Made by a program: the position numbers and the translations under genes. From a virus, in IMG/VR virus record IMGVR_UViG_3300031565_000174: DNA of 35,933 nucleotides; one strand, written 5' to 3'. The notes below the pieces were generated by a model that saw nothing but the letters and a program-made list of their open reading frames with translations, made no database searches and was not told where the DNA came from. Shown here piece by piece: positions 450 through 35,627 of this stretch; the first letter of the stretch is position 1, and each line of letters begins with the position of its first letter.

Positions 450-1952
450 TTGATGATAGATAAAATATTAAAGAGGCTCGGCTATTCCAAAATGCGCCGG
501 AGAAATTTCAGCGGTGCGAATACAGGCAGGCTTTATTCATCCTGGCCCTCAACCAGTTATTCCGCCGATGCTGAATTAAGGAATGATTTACGGGCGCTGC
601 GGGCCAGGAGCCGGGAACTTGCCAATAATAATGATTATGCAAAGAAGTTTATCCGTATGGTAAAAACAAATGTTATCGGACAGAATGGGATCCGCCTGCA
701 GAGCATAGCCAAAACCGATAATAATAAGCCCGATCAATTAGCCAGAATTAAAATCGAGGAGGGATTTGATTCCTGGTCTAAAAAAGGGATCTGCGAGATA
801 TCCGGAAAGTATTCATTCCGTGATGTCCAGAACCTGGTGATGGGTTCCACGGCCAGGGACGGTGAAGTTCTGGTGCGTTTTATTCGGAAAGTAGATAACG
901 ATTTTGGATTCGCTCTTCAGCTTTTAGAAGCCGATCATTTGGATGACAGATATAATGACACCAGACCAAATGGAAATAAGGTTAAGATGGGTATCGAATA
1001 TAATGAATGGAACCGGCCGGTAAGATACTGGATCCATCCGAGTCATCCTGGCGATTTGTTTTTTACCCAATCCTATGGCGAGAGGATTCCTGTTGATGCC
1101 AATGATATGCTTCATATTTTCCTTCCCATCCGGATCAGCCAGGGAAGGGGAATACCCTGGATGCATGCCGCCCTTACCCGTCTGAATATGATCGGCGCCT
1201 ATGAAGAAGCAGAACTGGTTGCAGCGCGAATGGGAGCTGCAAAAAACGGTTTTTATTATTATGAAAAAGGAGAAGGGGAAGGTGAATATCCCGGAGATGA
1301 TACGACGGAAGAGGGTGGCCAAGGTAGCCCGATCCAGGAGGCGGAAGCTGGTCATTATGAGTTATTGCCCTATGGTCTGAGATTTAAAGAAAATGATCCT
1401 CAGCATCCGACAACAGCTTATAAGGATTTTATTAAGGCGCTACTCCGGGGAATCGCCTCCGGGGTAGATGTCAGTTATAATTTTTTGTCCAATGATTTAG
1501 AGGGTGTCAATTATTCCAGCATTCGAGCCGGTGTCCTGGATGAAAGGGATGTTTGGCGGGATATCCAGGCCTGGATATCAGAACATTTTCACCAGGTTGT
1601 TTTCGAAAAATGGCTGGAGATGGCAATATTGACCGGCGCCGTGAAACTTACTTTCAGGGATTTCGATCGCTGGATCCAGACCAGATGGCAGCCGCGGGGA
1701 TGGCAGTGGGTTGATCCCCTAAAAGATTCCATGTCAACCATTAACGAAATAAAGGCCGGATTAAAAACCGGTTCGATGGCAGCTGCCGAGAAGGGCTTAG
1801 ATCTTGAAGAGACTTATCAGCAATTATCTTATGAGGAAGAGCTGCGAAAAAAGTATGGTATTAAAGTCAGTTATGATCTGGATTTATTGGAAACACTGGC
1901 AAAAATACAAGAAACATTGGAAAAAATAGAGGTCCAAAATGAAAAAAATTAA
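450..1952 (+). CDS. Portal protein, lambda gpB family
   Basis: 500-aa ORF directly after the gpW-like gene and overlapping the protease/capsid gene start. Size, position and sequence character fit a lambda-family portal. TTG at 450, alternative ATG at 453. Confidence 0.85.
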   Translation: MMIDKILKRLGYSKMRRRNFSGANTGRLYSSWPSTSYSADAELRNDLRALRARSRELANNNDYAKKFIRMVKTNVIGQNGIRLQSIAKTDNNKPDQLARIKIEEGFDSWSKKGICEISGKYSFRDVQNLVMGSTARDGEVLVRFIRKVDNDFGFALQLLEADHLDDRYNDTRPNGNKVKMGIEYNEWNRPVRYWIHPSHPGDLFFTQSYGERIPVDANDMLHIFLPIRISQGRGIPWMHAALTRLNMIGAYEEAELVAARMGAAKNGFYYYEKGEGEGEYPGDDTTEEGGQGSPIQEAEAGHYELLPYGLRFKENDPQHPTTAYKDFIKALLRGIASGVDVSYNFLSNDLEGVNYSSIRAGVLDERDVWRDIQAWISEHFHQVVFEKWLEMAILTGAVKLTFRDFDRWIQTRWQPRGWQWVDPLKDSMSTINEIKAGLKTGSMAAAEKGLDLEETYQQLSYEEELRKKYGIKVSYDLDLLETLAKIQETLEKIEVQNEKN

Positions 1953-4716: not shown

Positions 4717-5037
4717 ATGACTATAAATGAGCAGATTTTAAGTGATCTCGATGCGATTTTTACCGATGGTCTGACAATCGATATTACCCATACTTACAAC
4801 GGCGGTGAGTCCAGTGAAACATTGAAGGCGTTCTTTGACCGATCATATGGAGTGGCTCTGCAGGAGGGTGTGGGAATCGAATCAGCGAGTCTATCGATAT
4901 TAATCAGAACATCAGAGGTAGGAAATATTGATAGAGACAGTGAATTTACAATCCAAGATACTACTTATTATGTCATTGAAAATCAAGGAGATGATCAGGG
5001 TGTGACACGAATATTAATCAGTGAGGACAAGGTCTGA
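4717..5037 (+). CDS. Head-tail joining protein, lambda gpFII-like
   Basis: 106 aa. TLKAFFDRSYGVALQEGVGIESASLSILIRTSEVGNIDRDSEFTIQDTTYYVIENQGDDQGVTRILI parallels the recalled FII sequence (VIRGVFDDPENISYAGQGVRVEGSSPSLFVRTDEVRQLRRGDTLTIGEENFWV...). Confidence 0.55.
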   Translation: MTINEQILSDLDAIFTDGLTIDITHTYNGGESSETLKAFFDRSYGVALQEGVGIESASLSILIRTSEVGNIDRDSEFTIQDTTYYVIENQGDDQGVTRILISEDKV

Positions 5038-20522: not shown

Positions 20523-20966
20523 TTAATCCATATATTTTTTGTTTTTCCCATCACCATCATCGAGGTAAATATTTTCTTTTTCGATATCAAACATGGCGCA
20601 TGTAACTCTTAATAATTTTTCTCTATGGTCCGGAGGAAGACTTGAAACGATATGTAATATCTCTTCCACATATGGTTTTCTAAAAACACCGCGTTTTTCA
20701 TTTTCACTAAAGGGAGAAAATGGCTCAATTACAATTAAAGTTTTTTCATTATTAATTTCCGGGGATCCTTCACCGGTAATCAACCAGTTAAAATTTATAT
20801 TCTCGCATTTGGAAAATATTAAATTCCAATCAATTTTATTTCTTTTTTTCCAGGACGATAAAGTATTTGATGCTAATCCTAGAAATTCACTTAATTTATT
20901 GTATTTTTTAAATTTATATATTTGCATCAAACGATCAATTACCAATTCAGCTAATACTTTTTCCAT
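20523..20966 (-). CDS. CI-type phage repressor (Phage_CI_repr HTH family), no S24 peptidase domain
   Basis: KKYNKLSEFLGLASNTLSSWKKRNKIDWNLIFSKCENINFNWLITGEG matches the recalled CI-repressor HTH family signature (...S.W..R...P......dWLl.G.G). It is divergent from the early operon. Confidence 0.7.
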   Translation of the reverse strand: MEKVLAELVIDRLMQIYKFKKYNKLSEFLGLASNTLSSWKKRNKIDWNLIFSKCENINFNWLITGEGSPEINNEKTLIVIEPFSPFSENEKRGVFRKPYVEEILHIVSSLPPDHREKLLRVTCAMFDIEKENIYLDDGDGKNKKYMD

Positions 20967-20994
20967 AAAATCTCTCTATATGCGAATATTTATC

Positions 20995-21023
20995 TTGACT
21001 TTCTCGCATGATGCGATTATATT
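20995..21023 (+). promoter_or_regulatory. Rightward early promoter candidate: TTGACT (20995-21000), 17 nt, TATATT (21018-21023)
   Basis: Read directly. A minus-strand TATAAT (reverse complement of 21016-21021) overlaps it, as expected for a divergent switch. Confidence 0.5.
21004..21016. promoter_or_regulatory. Operator candidate: perfect 13-bp palindrome TCGCATgATGCGA inside the promoter spacer
   Basis: Read directly. A degenerate copy (TCTCTATATGCGA) lies at 20973-20985, 31 bp away centre to centre. Confidence 0.5.
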
Positions 21024-21083
21024 TATCCAGTCTTATTTAATTCCTTGACCCATTTGGGTTACGAATTGATCTTTGAAAATAAA

Positions 21084-21345
21084 GCCGGCAGGAACAGCCT
21101 GTGTCATTCGTTTTAACAGCTAGGTTCACTAACAAATGCGACCAAGCATTTGCTAAACCTATGATCATGCTGCTAATCGGTAACTCTAAAAAACCATTCC
21201 GAAACCTATCTCAGAGTATTAATACTCTTCGAGGAGCCTGCCATTCATTCCTATTGATAAAGGGTAGGGCGACCGGGAGATTATTTTATAGGACGGATCC
21301 TATAAAAGGTGATCCCCTTCAAGTCCACTTCCGGTTCCTGCCGGC
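21084..21345 (+). ncRNA. Candidate structured RNA (independent ncRNA or long 5' leader of the early operon); class not recognised
   Basis: A 12-bp closing helix pairs GCCGGCAGGAAC (21084-21095) with GTTCCTGCCGGC (21334-21345). Internal perfect hairpins lie at 21133-21152 (7 bp), 21213-21228 (8 bp) and 21284-21307 (9 bp). The only ORF is GTG-started (21101-21367), and the segment is GC-richer than its flanks. Confidence 0.3.
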
Positions 21346-21419
21346 GCTAAGGGCTTCGCTATTTTAGATCATCGGCATATAGGATATTGAATCAATTAAC
21401 AATTTTTAAGGACCATCTT

Positions 21420-21638
21420 ATGGACGAAATAAAAAAATTCAGAATCGCTTTACTCTATTCCGATCTTGATTATGAAACTTTCGGCAAGATCCATGGCGTT
21501 GGAAAACAGAATGTATATGCAACGGTACGGGCCATGAAGATTGGTATACCGCAATCTGCCAGGATCCGGGAAGCGATCAAGAATTTTACCAGGGAGCAGT
21601 TAATCCTTCTGCGTTATGCCATCGATAAGGCTGCCTGA
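21420..21638 (+). CDS. Cro-like small HTH regulator (72 aa from ATG 21420; TTG 21387 also possible)
   Basis: AAGGA lies 8 nt upstream of ATG 21420. YETFGKIHGVGKQNVYATVRA looks like an HTH. First gene of the rightward operon. Confidence 0.55.
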   Translation: MDEIKKFRIALLYSDLDYETFGKIHGVGKQNVYATVRAMKIGIPQSARIREAIKNFTREQLILLRYAIDKAA

Positions 21639-21646
21639 TACCCGTG

Positions 21647-21664
21647 AATATAATATATTATATT
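21647..21664. promoter_or_regulatory. Perfect 18-bp AT-only palindrome AATATAATATATTATATT
   Basis: Verified by reverse-complementing by hand. It lies in the intergenic gap between the cro-like and CII-like genes. Confidence 0.3.
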
Positions 21665-21757
21665 TACGCTGTCAATATTAATCGGGAAGTTTCCACCTTA
21701 GTAAAAGGTAAGACAGCTTCCGTTAAAATGAAATTATAATTTTGGGAGAGATTATAA

Positions 21758-22213
21758 ATGGATTATGAAAATCTGGCTGAATGGCAGGTCGTCAGCGAGA
21801 TCCTGCACAACAACCCCGAAAGTTTAACCGTACTTCAAATTGCCAACCGCCTGGGTATTACCGACATTAACGTATACAAATGGGGCCAGGATCCGGAGTT
21901 TTCTGGTACTGTGATGCCTAAAAAGTATGAAATCCCATTCTCAAATGTAACCGGCGATAAACGTCTATTCGAATGGAAGGCCTCACAGATCGGATACCGG
22001 TTAAAGCCGCTTGAGATCGGCGCCGTAAATAAAGATGATATTTTTACCCAGTTCCTCGATGCCGGCAATCTCTTAGGTAAAGCAATGGGCGAACTTAAAA
22101 TATCTCTGGTTGACGGGAAATTAGACGATAGTGATAAGATGAAATTGCGGACCGTGCTTGATGTACTGATCAGGCACTGCCAGGGTATAAAAGATTCAAT
22201 CGGAGCATTATAA
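21758..22213 (+). CDS. HTH regulatory protein, CII (CP76)-like
   Basis: N-terminal HTH LTVLQIANRLGITDINVYKWGQD. C-terminal LVDGKLDDSDKMKLRTVLDVLIRHCQGI resembles the DGxIxxxE helix of the Phage_CP76 family. Memory only. Confidence 0.4.
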   Translation: MDYENLAEWQVVSEILHNNPESLTVLQIANRLGITDINVYKWGQDPEFSGTVMPKKYEIPFSNVTGDKRLFEWKASQIGYRLKPLEIGAVNKDDIFTQFLDAGNLLGKAMGELKISLVDGKLDDSDKMKLRTVLDVLIRHCQGIKDSIGAL

Positions 22214-22890: not shown

Positions 22891-22907
22891 CTAAATAAAT
22901 AAATCAA

Positions 22908-23080
22908 GAGGTATATTTTAAAGAGAGGTTTAAAAGGGGAATCTTATTTAAGAGACTTAAAATCAATTAGATAGGCGGAAATAAAGAAGATTGTATACTA
23001 TGAAAATTGTTACATAATATACAATCCGTTAACACCAAACAAATCCCCTTTTAACCTCTTTTAAATCATAAGTATACCTC
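22908..23080. repeat. Nested imperfect inverted repeats in a 237-bp intergenic region
   Basis: Outer pair: GAGGTATA (22908-22915) with TATACCTC (23073-23080). Middle pair: AGAGGTTTAAAAGGGGA (22924-22940) with TCCCCTTTTAACCTCT (23044-23059). Inner pair: GATTGTATA (22989-22997) with TATACAATC (23018-23026). Confidence 0.8.
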
Positions 23081-23127
23081 AGAATTTCTAAAAATTTTTA
23101 AGCTAGTATAGCAGGAGGGTTTTACTT

Positions 23128-24764: not shown

Positions 24765-25304
24765 TTGAATACACCCGACGGAAAATTCAAGAAAGGAAGA
24801 AGAGCCAGCCCGGCCACGGAATTTAAGAAAGGAATCATTCCCTGGAATACCGGAAGGAAAGGAGTTCATTACAGCCCGGCTACGGAGTTTAAAAAAGGTC
24901 ACGTGCCGGCCAGCATGAAATATGACGGCTGTATCTCGGTCCGGGTCAAAAGAACAACCGGCGAGAAGTACAAGTTTATCCGGATATCAAAAAATAAATG
25001 GGTTCAATATCACAGATATATCTGGGAAAAACATTATGGAAAAATTCCGGAAGGAATGATTGTCCGGTTTAAAAATGGCAATTCACTGGATGTCCGGATA
25101 GAAAATCTTGAGATGATATCAAAAAATGAAAATCTAATCCGGAACAGAAATTACAATACGGATAAAATGATCGCCGGATATATTACCAGGGATCCGGAAC
25201 TTAAAAAACTGGTTGTTTTAAATCCGCACTTGCTGGAGATAAAACGGCTGCAGTTAAAACTTGGGAGATCCTTGAATGGGAGAAAGATTAAGTCAGTATC
25301 TTAA
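24765..25304 (+). CDS. HNH (HNH_3-type) homing-like endonuclease
   Basis: TTG start. A tripled SPATEFKKG(H/I)xPWN-like N-terminal motif, then WVQYHRYIWEKHYGKIPEGMIVRFKNGNSLDVRIENLEMISKNEN, typical of phage HNH_3 proteins. Confidence 0.65.
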   Translation: MNTPDGKFKKGRRASPATEFKKGIIPWNTGRKGVHYSPATEFKKGHVPASMKYDGCISVRVKRTTGEKYKFIRISKNKWVQYHRYIWEKHYGKIPEGMIVRFKNGNSLDVRIENLEMISKNENLIRNRNYNTDKMIAGYITRDPELKKLVVLNPHLLEIKRLQLKLGRSLNGRKIKSVS

Positions 25305-30530: not shown

Positions 30531-30540
30531 AGGAGAAGAA

Positions 30541-33273: not shown

Positions 33274-33786
33274 ATGATAAATGAGAAAAAAAAGAAAATA
33301 CAAGATATTGAAATTACTCAACTTGAGTTGGCTGAAATTCTTAATCTTTCAATTAAAAGAATATATGAATTATCGGAACTGGATATTTTGGATCACAGTC
33401 CCAGGGGTAAATATAATTTAAAGAAGTCAGTTCAAAAATATATTAATTATAGAATTGAATATGAAAGAAATATTTGGGGGGACATAGATAAAGAAGCCAA
33501 AAGGGCGAGGCGAGAAAAGGAAATTGCAGAAGCTGAATTAAAGAGAATAGATGTTCAAATTAAAGAAATTGATCTTGATGTCCTTAGAGGTAAATTGATA
33601 CCTATTGATAAAGTTATTGAAGACGATCAGAAAATTATCAGTTTGGTTAGAACCAGAATATTGGCGATTTCAGCAAAAGTTGCGCCGCTTTTAATTGGAC
33701 TCCGTTCAATTAAGAGGATTAAAACAATCATTGATCCGGAATTACATGAAGCATTAAATGAATTATCAAGGATAAAAAAAGTTTGA
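33274..33786 (+). CDS. terS: Terminase small subunit, Nu1-like
   Basis: N-terminal HTH ITQLELAEILNLSIKRIYELSE, a central coiled coil, and position immediately upstream of and overlapping terL. Confidence 0.7.
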   Translation: MINEKKKKIQDIEITQLELAEILNLSIKRIYELSELDILDHSPRGKYNLKKSVQKYINYRIEYERNIWGDIDKEAKRARREKEIAEAELKRIDVQIKEIDLDVLRGKLIPIDKVIEDDQKIISLVRTRILAISAKVAPLLIGLRSIKRIKTIIDPELHEALNELSRIKKV

Positions 33787-35627
33787 ATTATATAGCAGAA
33801 CGAACAAAAATATTCAAGTCGCCACCCATGCTAAAAGTTTCGGAGTGGGCGGATAAATATCGAGTCCTTTCTTCCAAGGCATCGGCGGAGCCCGGGAGAT
33901 GGCATACGTCCCGCGCGGAATATCAGCGCGGTATAATGGATGCCATCAATGATCCGGACATCGAACAGGTGGTGGCAATGACCTGCGCCCAGATCGGGAA
34001 GACGGAGACACTCGGAAATATCATCGGTTATTTTATTTCCCAGGATCCGGCTCCGATCCTGGTCATACAGCCTACTCTGGAAATGGCGATGACCTGGTCA
34101 AAGGACCGGTTTACGCCAATGATCAGGGATTGTGATATCCTGAAGGGAAAAATAAAAGAATCAAAAACCAGGGATTCAGATAATACGATTCTTCATAAAT
34201 CATTCCCGGGTGGTCACGTTACGATATGCGGCGCCAATTCTCCGGCATCGCTGGCATCCCGGCCGATCAGAGTGGTCTTGTGTGATGAGATTGACAAGTA
34301 TCCGCCCAGCGCCGGCAGCGAAGGAGATCCGGTCAGCCTGGCGCTTAAAAGATCGGCGACATTCTGGAACCGGGTAAATCTTCTTATTTCAACCCCAACC
34401 GTAAAAGGTTTGAGCCGTATAGAGGCAGCCTGGGAAGAATCGGACCAGAGAAGATTTTTCGTTTCCTGTCCTAAATGCAAAAAAACGCAATTTTTAAAAT
34501 GGTCAAATATCGCTTGGTTAAAAGACGATGACGGAAAAAACCTGCCGCATACAACTAAATATAAATGCGAATTTTGCGGGAACTTGTGGGATGATGCCAA
34601 ACGCTGGAATGCCATAAGACATGGCCAGTGGCAGATAACCAGAAAAACTCCGGAACAGAATCTTGTCGCCGGTTTTCATTTGAATGAAATCTATTCTCCC
34701 TGGATACGATTAAGTGAGATGGTTTCAAATTTTTTAAAATCAAAAGACAATCCGGAAATGTTGAAAGCATTTGTCAATACTTCCCTGGGAGAAACCTGGG
34801 AAGAGGAAGGCTTTAAATTAAGCGAAATGGATCTATATGCCAGGCGTGAAAAATATAAGGCCCCGGTACCTAAAGGTGGACTTGTTTTGATAGCCAGCGT
34901 TGACGTCCAGGATGATAGATTAGAAGGCGAAATCGTTGCCTACGGTGAAGGGGAGGAATCCTGGGGAATCGAATATTTTATTATCCACGGGGATCCGGGA
35001 AGGCGAAGGGTATGGGATGACCTGGACAGGAAACTGGCCTCAACTTACAGACATGAGGATGATCTTGAATTGAGAATTGCCTGCACGTGCATAGATTCCG
35101 GCGGCCATTTTACTAATCAGGTATATGCATTTTGTAAGGGTAAGGAATTCCGGAGGATTTATGCGATTAAAGGAGCGAACACACCGGGAAAGCCGATTGT
35201 TTCCCGGCCGTCAAAATCAAATAAAGCCCGGATTAAATTATTTACCGTCGGTACCGATACGGCAAAGGAATTGATTTTTTCCAGGCTAAAAATGAAGGAT
35301 CCCGGGCCTGGATATATGCATTTTCCCAAAGGTTATGATGATGAATATTTCTCCCAGCTAACCGCGGAAAAGGCAACGACGAAATATACCAGGGGATTTC
35401 CGCATAGGGTATGGGTAAAAAAACCGGGCCAGCGCAATGAAGCTCTGGATATTAGAGTTTATAACCTGGCAGCATTGATTATCTTGAATCCAATGTTCAA
35501 GAAGATTGCCGAAAGTTTTTCCAGGAAGAAAAAAACAAAAGAAGATCCGGAGATAGTCACTAAAAAATCTAATACAGTAAAAAGACCCAGGCGGAAAAAC
35601 AGCTGGGCTTATGGCTGGAAAACATGA
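33783..35627 (+). CDS. terL: Terminase large subunit, lambda GpA family
   Basis: 614 aa, TTG start overlapping the terS stop. Walker-A-like AQIGKTE, a VVLCDEIDKY acidic box, and the zinc-finger-like CPKC...CEFCG typical of GpA-family terminases. Confidence 0.85.
   Translation: MNYIAERTKIFKSPPMLKVSEWADKYRVLSSKASAEPGRWHTSRAEYQRGIMDAINDPDIEQVVAMTCAQIGKTETLGNIIGYFISQDPAPILVIQPTLEMAMTWSKDRFTPMIRDCDILKGKIKESKTRDSDNTILHKSFPGGHVTICGANSPASLASRPIRVVLCDEIDKYPPSAGSEGDPVSLALKRSATFWNRVNLLISTPTVKGLSRIEAAWEESDQRRFFVSCPKCKKTQFLKWSNIAWLKDDDGKNLPHTTKYKCEFCGNLWDDAKRWNAIRHGQWQITRKTPEQNLVAGFHLNEIYSPWIRLSEMVSNFLKSKDNPEMLKAFVNTSLGETWEEEGFKLSEMDLYARREKYKAPVPKGGLVLIASVDVQDDRLEGEIVAYGEGEESWGIEYFIIHGDPGRRRVWDDLDRKLASTYRHEDDLELRIACTCIDSGGHFTNQVYAFCKGKEFRRIYAIKGANTPGKPIVSRPSKSNKARIKLFTVGTDTAKELIFSRLKMKDPGPGYMHFPKGYDDEYFSQLTAEKATTKYTRGFPHRVWVKKPGQRNEALDIRVYNLAALIILNPMFKKIAESFSRKKKTKEDPEIVTKKSNTVKRPRRKNSWAYGWKT

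Follow-up and report, generated by a model that had tools for sequence, protein, structure and literature searches.

Early transcripts of phages can carry structured leaders and stems between cistrons, as in the lambda N leader and at the RNase III sites of T7 early mRNA. The put-type antiterminator RNA of HK022 consists of two neighbouring stem-loops shortly after an early promoter, and these render RNA polymerase resistant to terminators. Long-range fold-back of the 5′ end onto the 3′ end is shown by hok-type mRNAs of type I toxin–antitoxin systems, and the pyrBI and trp leaders operate by attenuation via a leader peptide. An example of a promoter-proximal leader with read-through of an attenuator or terminator is provided by Gifsy-1 IsrK (PMC4825925). 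A literature search brought up no precedent for a large structured RNA between a repressor gene and cro. Here, a 262-nt element in this position (21084–21345) was analysed in IMG/VR record IMGVR_UViG_3300031565_000174, the 35,933-nt stretch of DNA referred to throughout as the window. The window holds the almost complete genome of an uncultivated, lambda-like temperate phage, and the element is probably a non-coding RNA in the leader of its lytic operon. This phage (phage A) is compared below with a related one, phage B (P0004, loci L098–L107), whose copies are mutually identical here and whose coordinates are given on L098.

Structure and promoter context of the element

For assessment of structure, the element was folded and compared with dinucleotide shuffles. 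On the + (rightward) strand its minimum free energy (MFE) was −85.5 kcal/mol, against −62.5 ± 4.9 kcal/mol for the shuffles (z = −4.67), and none of 200 shuffles folded as well. The centroid fold was close to the MFE fold. When the genome was tiled in 262-nt segments (163 segments; mean z −0.48, standard deviation 1.28), one other segment was found to be equally extreme. Shuffling the intergenic region 1000 times produced a perfect inverted repeat of at least 12 bp in 13 cases; inverted-repeat pairs of 8-mers numbered 11 where 2.6 ± 2.1 were expected, a count reached by 4 of 1000 shuffles. An earlier reading made from the letters alone (the sequence-only reading) had called the element highly structured, and the shuffle z-scores and genome-wide outlier status bear this out.

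The same reading had proposed a 12-bp GC-rich long-range helix (P1) and three local hairpins (H1 to H3), and every coordinate that it gave for them was correct (Table 1). Pairing was found to reach further than it had proposed, with an outer helix (P0) lying outside P1 around a 14-nt bulge. The intergenic region between CI and cro, estimated there at about 450 bp, measured 453 bp (20967–21419). The element had also been described as GC-richer than its flanks; this holds relative to the CI side (45% versus 23–35%) and to the genome (39.8%), but not relative to cro and cII (37–47%).

The pentamer CCTAT or its complement ATAGG was found in 6 copies in 391 nt, a tenfold excess over the 0.56 expected, and the four + strand copies are spaced by 45–49 bp. 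These copies could possibly serve as alternative pairings or as a repeated binding motif. Two of them, 47 nt apart, have AAACCTAT in common, and both are able to pair with UAGGUU at 21121–21126.

The element starts about 55 nt downstream of the rightward promoter (PR) and upstream of cro. From the promoter sequence, transcription would start near 21030, which would place about 390 nt between this start and cro. A palindrome, TCGCATgATGCGA (21004–21016), lies within the second operator-like repeat, inside the spacer of the PR-like promoter. In the fold of the full leader, 21070–21080 is predicted to pair with the Shine–Dalgarno (SD) region of cro at 21402–21412 (probability about 0.77), in competition with P0. 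A leader under CsrA/RsmA control would be expected to have at least two A(N)GGA motifs in hairpin loops, one of them overlapping the SD. Motifs of this GGA kind were picked out by eye, with no statistics attached, in the H3 loop ACGGAU (21292–97), in AUAUAGGAUAU (21376–86) and in the SD AAGGA (21408–12).

The GTG-started open reading frame (ORF) of 88 codons that had been listed across the element is present, and it does not behave like a gene. Its codon score of −0.14 compares with 0.177 ± 0.083 for 49 genes (minimum 0.012) and −0.10 ± 0.135 for spurious ORFs. An exhaustive phmmer search of 1.84 billion representatives yielded no homologue of ORF88, only two weak multi-stretch matches, and ORF88 itself was not among these representatives as a predicted protein. 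The AlphaFold model was poor, with a predicted local distance difference test (pLDDT) score of 47, and gene callers called nothing in the element region in three assemblies. On codon use, lack of a homologue, lack of similarity to the ORF of phage B and pLDDT, ORF88 was rejected as a coding gene. The stop-free run on the + strand, 94 codons, is longer than 96% of those in dinucleotide shuffles (p = 0.038), a weak excess that keeps alive the variant of a translated leader ORF.

Table 1. Coordinates of the element, of its surroundings and of other features in the window
Feature	Position	Strand	Remarks
P1, 5′ arm GCCGGCAGGAAC	21084–21095	+	contains AGGA 7 nt before the ORF88 GTG; aligns with B 4941–4952
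P1, 3′ arm GTTCCTGCCGGC	21334–21345	+	perfect 12-bp inverted repeat with the 5′ arm
Multi-branched interior, 238 nt	21096–21333	+	H1, H2, H3 and two weaker stems; no phage B counterpart
H1, CAAATGC/GCATTTG	21133–21152		extends to 9/10 bp over 21130–21155
H2, palindrome AGAGTATT/AATACTCT	21213–21228		extendable by CTC..GAG to 21210–21233
H3, TTTTATAGG(A)/(T)CCTATAAAA	21284–21307		loop ACGGAU
Outer helix P0, 5′ strand	21062–21081	+	UGAUCU 21067–72, AAAAUA 21076–81; in the MFE fold of 21060–21380
Outer helix P0, 3′ strand	21360–21374	+	UAUUUU, AGAUCA; ORF88 stop TAG at 21365–21367
U-run UUUAUUUUC	21075–21083	−	directly 3′ of P1 in the minus-strand sense, where it resembles a terminator of leftward transcription
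CCTAT copies	21158, 21205, 21250, 21299	+	as ATAGG at 21288, 21379
ORF88, GTG start, 88 codons	21101–21367	+	spans the element; judged not a conventional gene
PR-like rightward early promoter, TTGACT-17-TATATT	20995–21023	+	10/12 matches
Two operator-like direct repeats	20971–20989, 21002–21020		31 bp apart, core ATGCGA; repeat search
Small 5′ leader hairpin	21037–21069	+	core GACCCA-uuug-GGGUUAC; within a 32-nt insertion relative to phage B
cro ribosome-binding region	21402–21422	+	AAGGA 21408–21412, ATG 21420
cro-like gene, 72 amino acids	21420–21638	+	first conventional gene of the rightward operon; called in all assemblies
Leftward promoter-like site, TTGACA-17-TATATT	21647–21675	−	between cro and cII; 11/12 matches
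CI-type repressor gene, 147 amino acids	20523–20966	−	Pfam PF07022 Phage_CI_repr, E = 2e-13; PHROG transcriptional repressor
CII-family activator	21758–22213		Pfam/PHROG scans
Lambda-family portal	450–1952		Pfam/PHROG scans
Large terminase	33783–35627		Pfam/PHROG scans

Comparison with phage B and database searches

A protein search with CII led to one relative, phage B, whose CII is 64% identical. The gene order of B is that of A: CI, PR with two operator repeats, cro, cII and a 222-amino-acid protein (69% identical). The PR-like promoter of A aligns with TTGACA-17-TATATT of B, and the operator repeats of B, 30 bp apart, occupy the same place as those of A with a different sequence. At the position of cro, B has a counterpart whose sequence is visibly similar by eye (unaligned). 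The PR–cro interval of B measures 812 bp and differs from that of A in content.

Directly after PR in B, positions 4922–4950 (AAATGATATTT--AAATAAAGGGCGGAAGGA) could be aligned with A 21064–21093 (AATTGATCTTTGAAAATAAA-GCCGGCAGGA). Both phages have an A-rich lead-in followed by a purine/pyrimidine closing helix, which in B consists of 9 bp (GGAAGGAGG/CCUCCUUUC) and closes a loop of 39 nt, versus 238 nt in A. The alignment covers 9 pairs of P1: 5 are the same in both phages, 1 goes from GC to GU, and 3 are altered on both sides with pairing kept (CG to AU, AU to GC and CG to GC). The closing helix of the sequence-only reading has in this way gained a positional homologue with compensatory changes. 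The G.U pair works only on the + strand and becomes an A/C mismatch on the minus strand. After P1, B carries a hairpin of −17 kcal/mol (GGCGGGC-ugaauu-GCCCGCC) and then UUUUCAAAGAUCA, a canonical intrinsic terminator on the + strand only, about 110 nt past the promoter; on the + strand of A this terminator is essentially gone (−3.9 kcal/mol). From the strand-specific terminator and the G.U pair it can be argued that the frame functions as + strand RNA. Where A has its minus-strand U-run, B has CCUCCUUCC-GCCC-UUUAUUU, and the motif TTGATCTTTGAAAA is common to both phages in inverted orientation because both frames are extended inverted repeats. As judged from this alignment, the PR transcript begins with a conserved helix frame, the 238-nt interior is not conserved, and the PR–cro slot is variable.

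The PR leader of B (L098 4920–5049) has the appearance of a separate RNA or an attenuator, about 110 nt long. In it, a perfect SD (AAGGAGG) pairs with the anti-SD-like ACCUCCUUUCC, and a 29-codon ORF with a TTG start begins 7 nt past this SD, runs through the −17 kcal/mol terminator and stops at a UAA that overlaps an SD-like UAAGGA. No credible Rfam match was obtained for the leader of B, and no structure was evident (z −0.7 and −0.1) in the remaining 327 nt, which lead up to a 94-amino-acid minus-strand gene. In the PR–cro slot (L098 5063–5651) there is a 100-codon + strand open frame with an SD (AAGGA) and a spurious-like codon score of −0.16; for the length of the frame, p = 0.011. The slot also contains the 94-amino-acid ORF on the minus strand, which is gene-like (codon score 0.177), has no family match and starts 18 bp from cro; the + strand open frame that shadows it overlaps the stop of the 100-codon frame. 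Further along the early operon of B, an anti-defence-like gene of the Acb2/Tad1-hairpin type (PF24729) was noted at L098 10098–10307.

A second strongly structured region (22891–23127, z −5.7) follows the 225-amino-acid gene in the rightward operon and ends before the gene after it. This region and its counterpart in B (L098 7134–7414, z −5.5) have in common a long-range helix that keeps pairing through 6 two-sided changes and surrounds a conserved block, ATTGTTAYATAATATAYAATCCGTT. No credible Rfam match was found for 22891–23127. Going by the two sequences, comparative support is better for this region than for the element, and with a second conserved long-range helix in the same operon, such helices look like a recurrent trait of this transcript. 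In the tiling, the segment that ranks third for structure (24861–25122, z −4.15) falls within the HNH endonuclease gene region.

To place the element among known RNAs, the whole window was searched with Rfam 15 (4227 models), and no match was obtained at the gathering threshold. At E ≤ 10, 20950–21450 gave only junk (mir-1545, E = 1.3; H19_2, E = 2.5), and ARAGORN reported no tRNA or tmRNA and no tRNA-like fold. These negative results agree with the earlier suggestion that the element lies outside known RNA families, and they count against the two more specific suggestions made alongside it. A faint resemblance to a cobalamin B12 box was not borne out, RF00174 giving no match at the gathering threshold in the window nor at E ≤ 10 in 20950–21450. 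An immunity RNA of the P4/P1 type found no support either, with no match to the C4 family (RF01695) at E ≤ 10 and a negative ARAGORN result; target boxes were not searched for.

Relatives of the element were sought at the DNA level as well. No similar DNA was returned by blastn against phages and plasmids, nor was any found in IMG/VR. The closing-helix pattern had no match in IMG/VR, and its 13 loci in GTDB genomes and JGI metagenomes, which are high in GC and have interiors that could not be aligned, were attributed to chance. Chance also accounts for 25 IMG/VR matches to the frame pattern, which were without the 3′ arm and without related proteins. Among 5.8 billion clustered proteins, CI and cro had no relatives besides themselves. 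Scans of IMG/VR with CI, CII, p225 and the A + B alignments gave nothing real, the single locus L001 being a spurious tail-protein match, and 78 loci found via a DUF5131 protein had no immunity genes in common.

Public copies of the phage, carried by 17–18 contigs, are clonal, and look-ups of exact proteins returned nothing but such copies. Assemblies from three samples agree over the element at 100% identity. The sole variation nearby is a single-nucleotide polymorphism at 20976. Over the 10.8 kb in common with the 36,037-bp ENA contig ERZ27256847, differences were seen only there and in a cluster at 30536–30539. The change at 20976 is from C to A in the operator-like repeat O1, within the SD region of cI, and it may be an operator or expression variant. 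Metagenome contig JGI Ga0307375_10005277 (L004/L097) starts at window position 21014, within the palindrome of the PR operator; the assembly may have broken at the switch here, possibly owing to variation in the population.

Elsewhere in the genome, Pfam/PHROG scans identified a capsid/protease fusion and a GpZ-like tail protein in addition to the genes of Table 1. The CI repressor gave distant tblastn matches to cI of the 186/PSP3 type, and the cro-like protein had no Pfam match. Among the subset of about 35 ORFs that was scanned, no integrase, recombinase, transposase, reverse transcriptase or RNA-guided protein was found; CI, cro and CII are present, yet no integrase, recombinase or transposase domain accompanies them in these ORFs.

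A proposed leader RNA and its alternatives

The reading that we tentatively favour, at somewhat less than an even chance, is that the element is a cis-acting structured leader RNA of the PR–cro transcript, in which a conserved leader hairpin has been enlarged. Support for this reading comes from the near-consensus promoter with operator repeats, which lies directly upstream on the same strand and is conserved in B. The element would form the body of a structured 5′ leader of about 390 nt on the rightward early transcript that encodes cro, within which two nested long-range helices, P0 and P1, would enclose the 238-nt multi-hairpin domain. The helix frame would be ancestral, serving in B, close to the promoter, as an attenuator or as a small leader RNA; in the window phage, its loop would have been expanded or replaced by a large domain while the terminator decayed. 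The segment 5′ of P1 could pair with either the 3′ strand of P0 or the cro SD, and folding, binding or cutting of the domain would then set cro translation. Cutting might proceed by RNase III acting on the composite stem of about 24 bp.

Several observations weigh against this reading. On the minus strand the MFE of the element is −90.5 kcal/mol (z = −4.45), slightly lower than on the + strand. Both strands fold almost equally well because all four helices are purely Watson–Crick, and from phage A alone the + strand is a tentative assignment. Only on the minus strand does a U-run directly adjoin P1. The frame comparison is one of two sequences, and inverted repeats serving as DNA sites would show an equal “compensatory” pattern. 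With no homologue in phages, plasmids, IMG/VR or the genome and metagenome pattern scans, the interior has zero covariation support; it is unique to this phage, and all public copies are identical in it. The leader of B is so much smaller that the large domain may be dispensable cargo. Finally, the helix that would occlude the cro SD is AU-rich with two G.U pairs, is easily obtained by chance and is not conserved in B. Taken together, the element is real and its structure statistically robust; that it is a new phage leader RNA is a reasonable proposal, with comparative support confined to the closing helix.

An unlikely alternative, though one with real support, is that the functional RNA is made from the other strand, the element being the 3′ portion of a leftward transcript from between cro and cII. 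P1 and UUUAUUUUC would then, just as questionably, act as a terminator or 3′ stabiliser, ending or attenuating leftward transcription before it arrived at PR, the operators and cI; a discrete antisense or immunity-modulating RNA might be formed by the structured body. On that strand a U-run, UUUAUUUU, directly follows P1, B has a similar order of helix, GCCC and UUUAUUU, and the fold is at least as good as that of the + strand. The strong leftward promoter-like site between cro and cII, in a PRE/pE-like position, would yield an antisense-cro RNA running into the element. By analogy with 186 and lambda, the presence of CII implies a leftward establishment promoter, and a CII-family activator is encoded here. 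In B, the gene-like 94-amino-acid ORF in the slot makes leftward transcription through the region certain. However, intrinsic termination is poorly served by a helix with 238 nt inside it, and the 3′ end has a weak local hairpin (−6.5 kcal/mol). The leftward promoter-like sites are not conserved in position, that of B (10/12 matches) being offset by about 25 nt, and promoter-like matches are no commoner in A than in shuffles and about twice the shuffle mean in B. P1 of B has its A/C mismatch on this strand, the strong terminator of B is on the + strand only, and termination just before cI would defeat an establishment transcript.

It is distinctly unlikely that the inverted repeats and palindromes act as DNA, as sites of protein binding or recombination, and not as helices of RNA. 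Candidates for such sites, with no better prospects, include the palindrome AGAGTATTAATACTCT of 16 bp with no loop, the 24-bp TTTTATAGGAcggaTCCTATAAAA and all six copies of CCTAT/ATAGG. The repressor, Cro or CII could use them as accessory sites for looping or wrapping, as happens around 186 CI, or they could bound a cassette open to swapping or inversion. Perfect Watson–Crick palindromes, one of them without a loop, would suit such roles, as would the excess and regular spacing of the CCTAT copies. A copy at 21372–21386 resembles operator O1 in inverted orientation. The 186 CI family uses distant flanking sites, and the repressor belongs to this family. The inverted-repeat frame has also been kept while the cargo of A and B is wholly different. 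Against this, three unrelated palindromes would need three different proteins, and at the distal O1-like site more than 3 of 14 positions are mismatched. Neither a recombinase nor an invertase turned up among the scanned ORFs, the orientation is the same in three independent assemblies, and there is neither a target-site duplication nor another copy in the window. The G.U pair and strand-specific terminator of B point to RNA.

Translation of a leader ORF through the structure (88 codons in A, 29 in B), with the 5′ arm of P1 as its SD, is improbable as the means of remodelling the leader. In B, a ribosome would, on this improbable account, mask the terminator in the manner of pyrBI and couple cro expression to translational capacity; that ORF88 is a real but odd orphan protein is no easier to credit. 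AGGA stands 7 nt before the GTG in A and a perfect AAGGAGG 7 nt before the TTG in B, where the 3′ arm mimics the 16S anti-SD and the 29-codon ORF crosses both this arm and the terminator. Stop-free runs on the + strand exceed those of dinucleotide shuffles in both phages (94 codons in A; 102 codons in B, p = 0.011). These p-values are modest, however, and that of B becomes 0.12 over the whole leader. The codon scores of ORF88 and of the 100-codon frame of B are in the spurious range and below every real gene, the A and B peptides have no similarity, and A has no terminator for a ribosome to mask. The lack of a homologue, the poor model and the absence of any gene call count against ORF88 here as well.

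We consider it equally doubtful that the interior is a new phage-borne sensory or decoy RNA domain, whether an orphan riboswitch-like aptamer or a module binding a protein or defence factor, grafted into the loop of an ancestral leader hairpin where transcription of the lytic operon begins. If it were, a cellular signal would directly set cro expression and hence the lysis–lysogeny decision.

Very improbable is an accessory non-coding RNA acting in trans, with the interior as cargo in a variable slot at the outset of the early operon, where it would titrate a host factor or a defence system as a decoy or sponge; such an RNA, as improbably, would be the earliest to be expressed upon infection, and processing would free it from the leader. 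The PR–cro slot is hypervariable, its cargo in B being the 94-amino-acid gene, and B has the Acb2/Tad1-like anti-defence gene in the same operon. The domain is compact, with a centroid close to the MFE fold, and its closing stem would suit excision. CsrA and RsmE bind GGA hexaloops, which the H3 loop calls to mind, but real sponges are unlike the element with its single GGA loop. The searches gave no second occurrence, and no promoter or terminator of its own and no target or partner were identified.

The remaining candidates were rejected. A miniature inverted-repeat transposable element or small transposon would have such terminal inverted repeats, but there is no target-site duplication at the 12-bp or extended repeats, no second copy in the window, and a helix frame in B that encloses different content; an inverton likewise has its inverted repeats but no recombinase among the scanned ORFs and a single orientation in assemblies from three samples. 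A tRNA or tmRNA attP fragment was dismissed as no tRNA or tmRNA was found, a type I toxin as there is no suitable small ORF, and a retron or other RNA associated with a reverse transcriptase, TnpB or a recombinase as no such protein is among the scanned ORFs. Two further likenesses, one between type I-F CRISPR repeats and the P1 3′ arm and one between the 3′ end of 16S and a 10-mer, were judged coincidental.

If the element is a functional leader RNA, an RNA layer would be added to a protein–operator lysis–lysogeny switch at the point where the first lytic transcript is made. The comparison of A with B would then show how leaders evolve, with the closing helix as a socket in which a module is swapped or expanded (39 nt and a terminator versus 238 nt). 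As a single-lineage orphan of an uncultivated phage, the element is a well-defined candidate rather than an established discovery.

Likeness to described systems

Unlike hok-type mRNAs, the element has no small hydrophobic toxin ORF, and no antisense RNA gene was identified; the two are alike in that end-to-end pairing closes a structured RNA of a few hundred nt in a mobile-element context. Attenuator leaders such as Gifsy-1 IsrK and those of pyrBI and trp find a likeness in phage B, where a hairpin is followed by a strong terminator and an SD-like arm is accompanied by a short ORF crossing that terminator. They differ from the window phage, whose + strand terminator is almost gone, whose loop holds the 238-nt domain and in which no antiterminator logic could be demonstrated.

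The immunity RNAs encoded in the leaders of P4 (CI RNA), P1/P7 (c4) and N15 (RF01695) differ from the element in their family membership, no C4 match at E ≤ 10 and no tRNA-like fold by ARAGORN having been found for the latter (target boxes were not looked for), and the window phage has a conventional protein repressor with operators. They share with it a structured RNA in the leader of an early or immunity operon that could act on the downstream part of the same transcript.

The lambda N leader and the T7 stems, at about 60–90 nt, are much shorter than the 262-nt element with its five internal stems, and there is no sequence similarity. Neither nut boxA/boxB nor an N homologue was identified in the window phage, where RNase III cleavage is put forward purely by inference. 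In common with these leaders, the element is a long, non-coding, double-stranded stem that is promoter-proximal in an early transcript and precedes the ribosome-binding site of the first gene. In those systems processing or refolding of the stem can change translation, as may be the case here, and a second such stem stands in a downstream intergenic region of the window operon.

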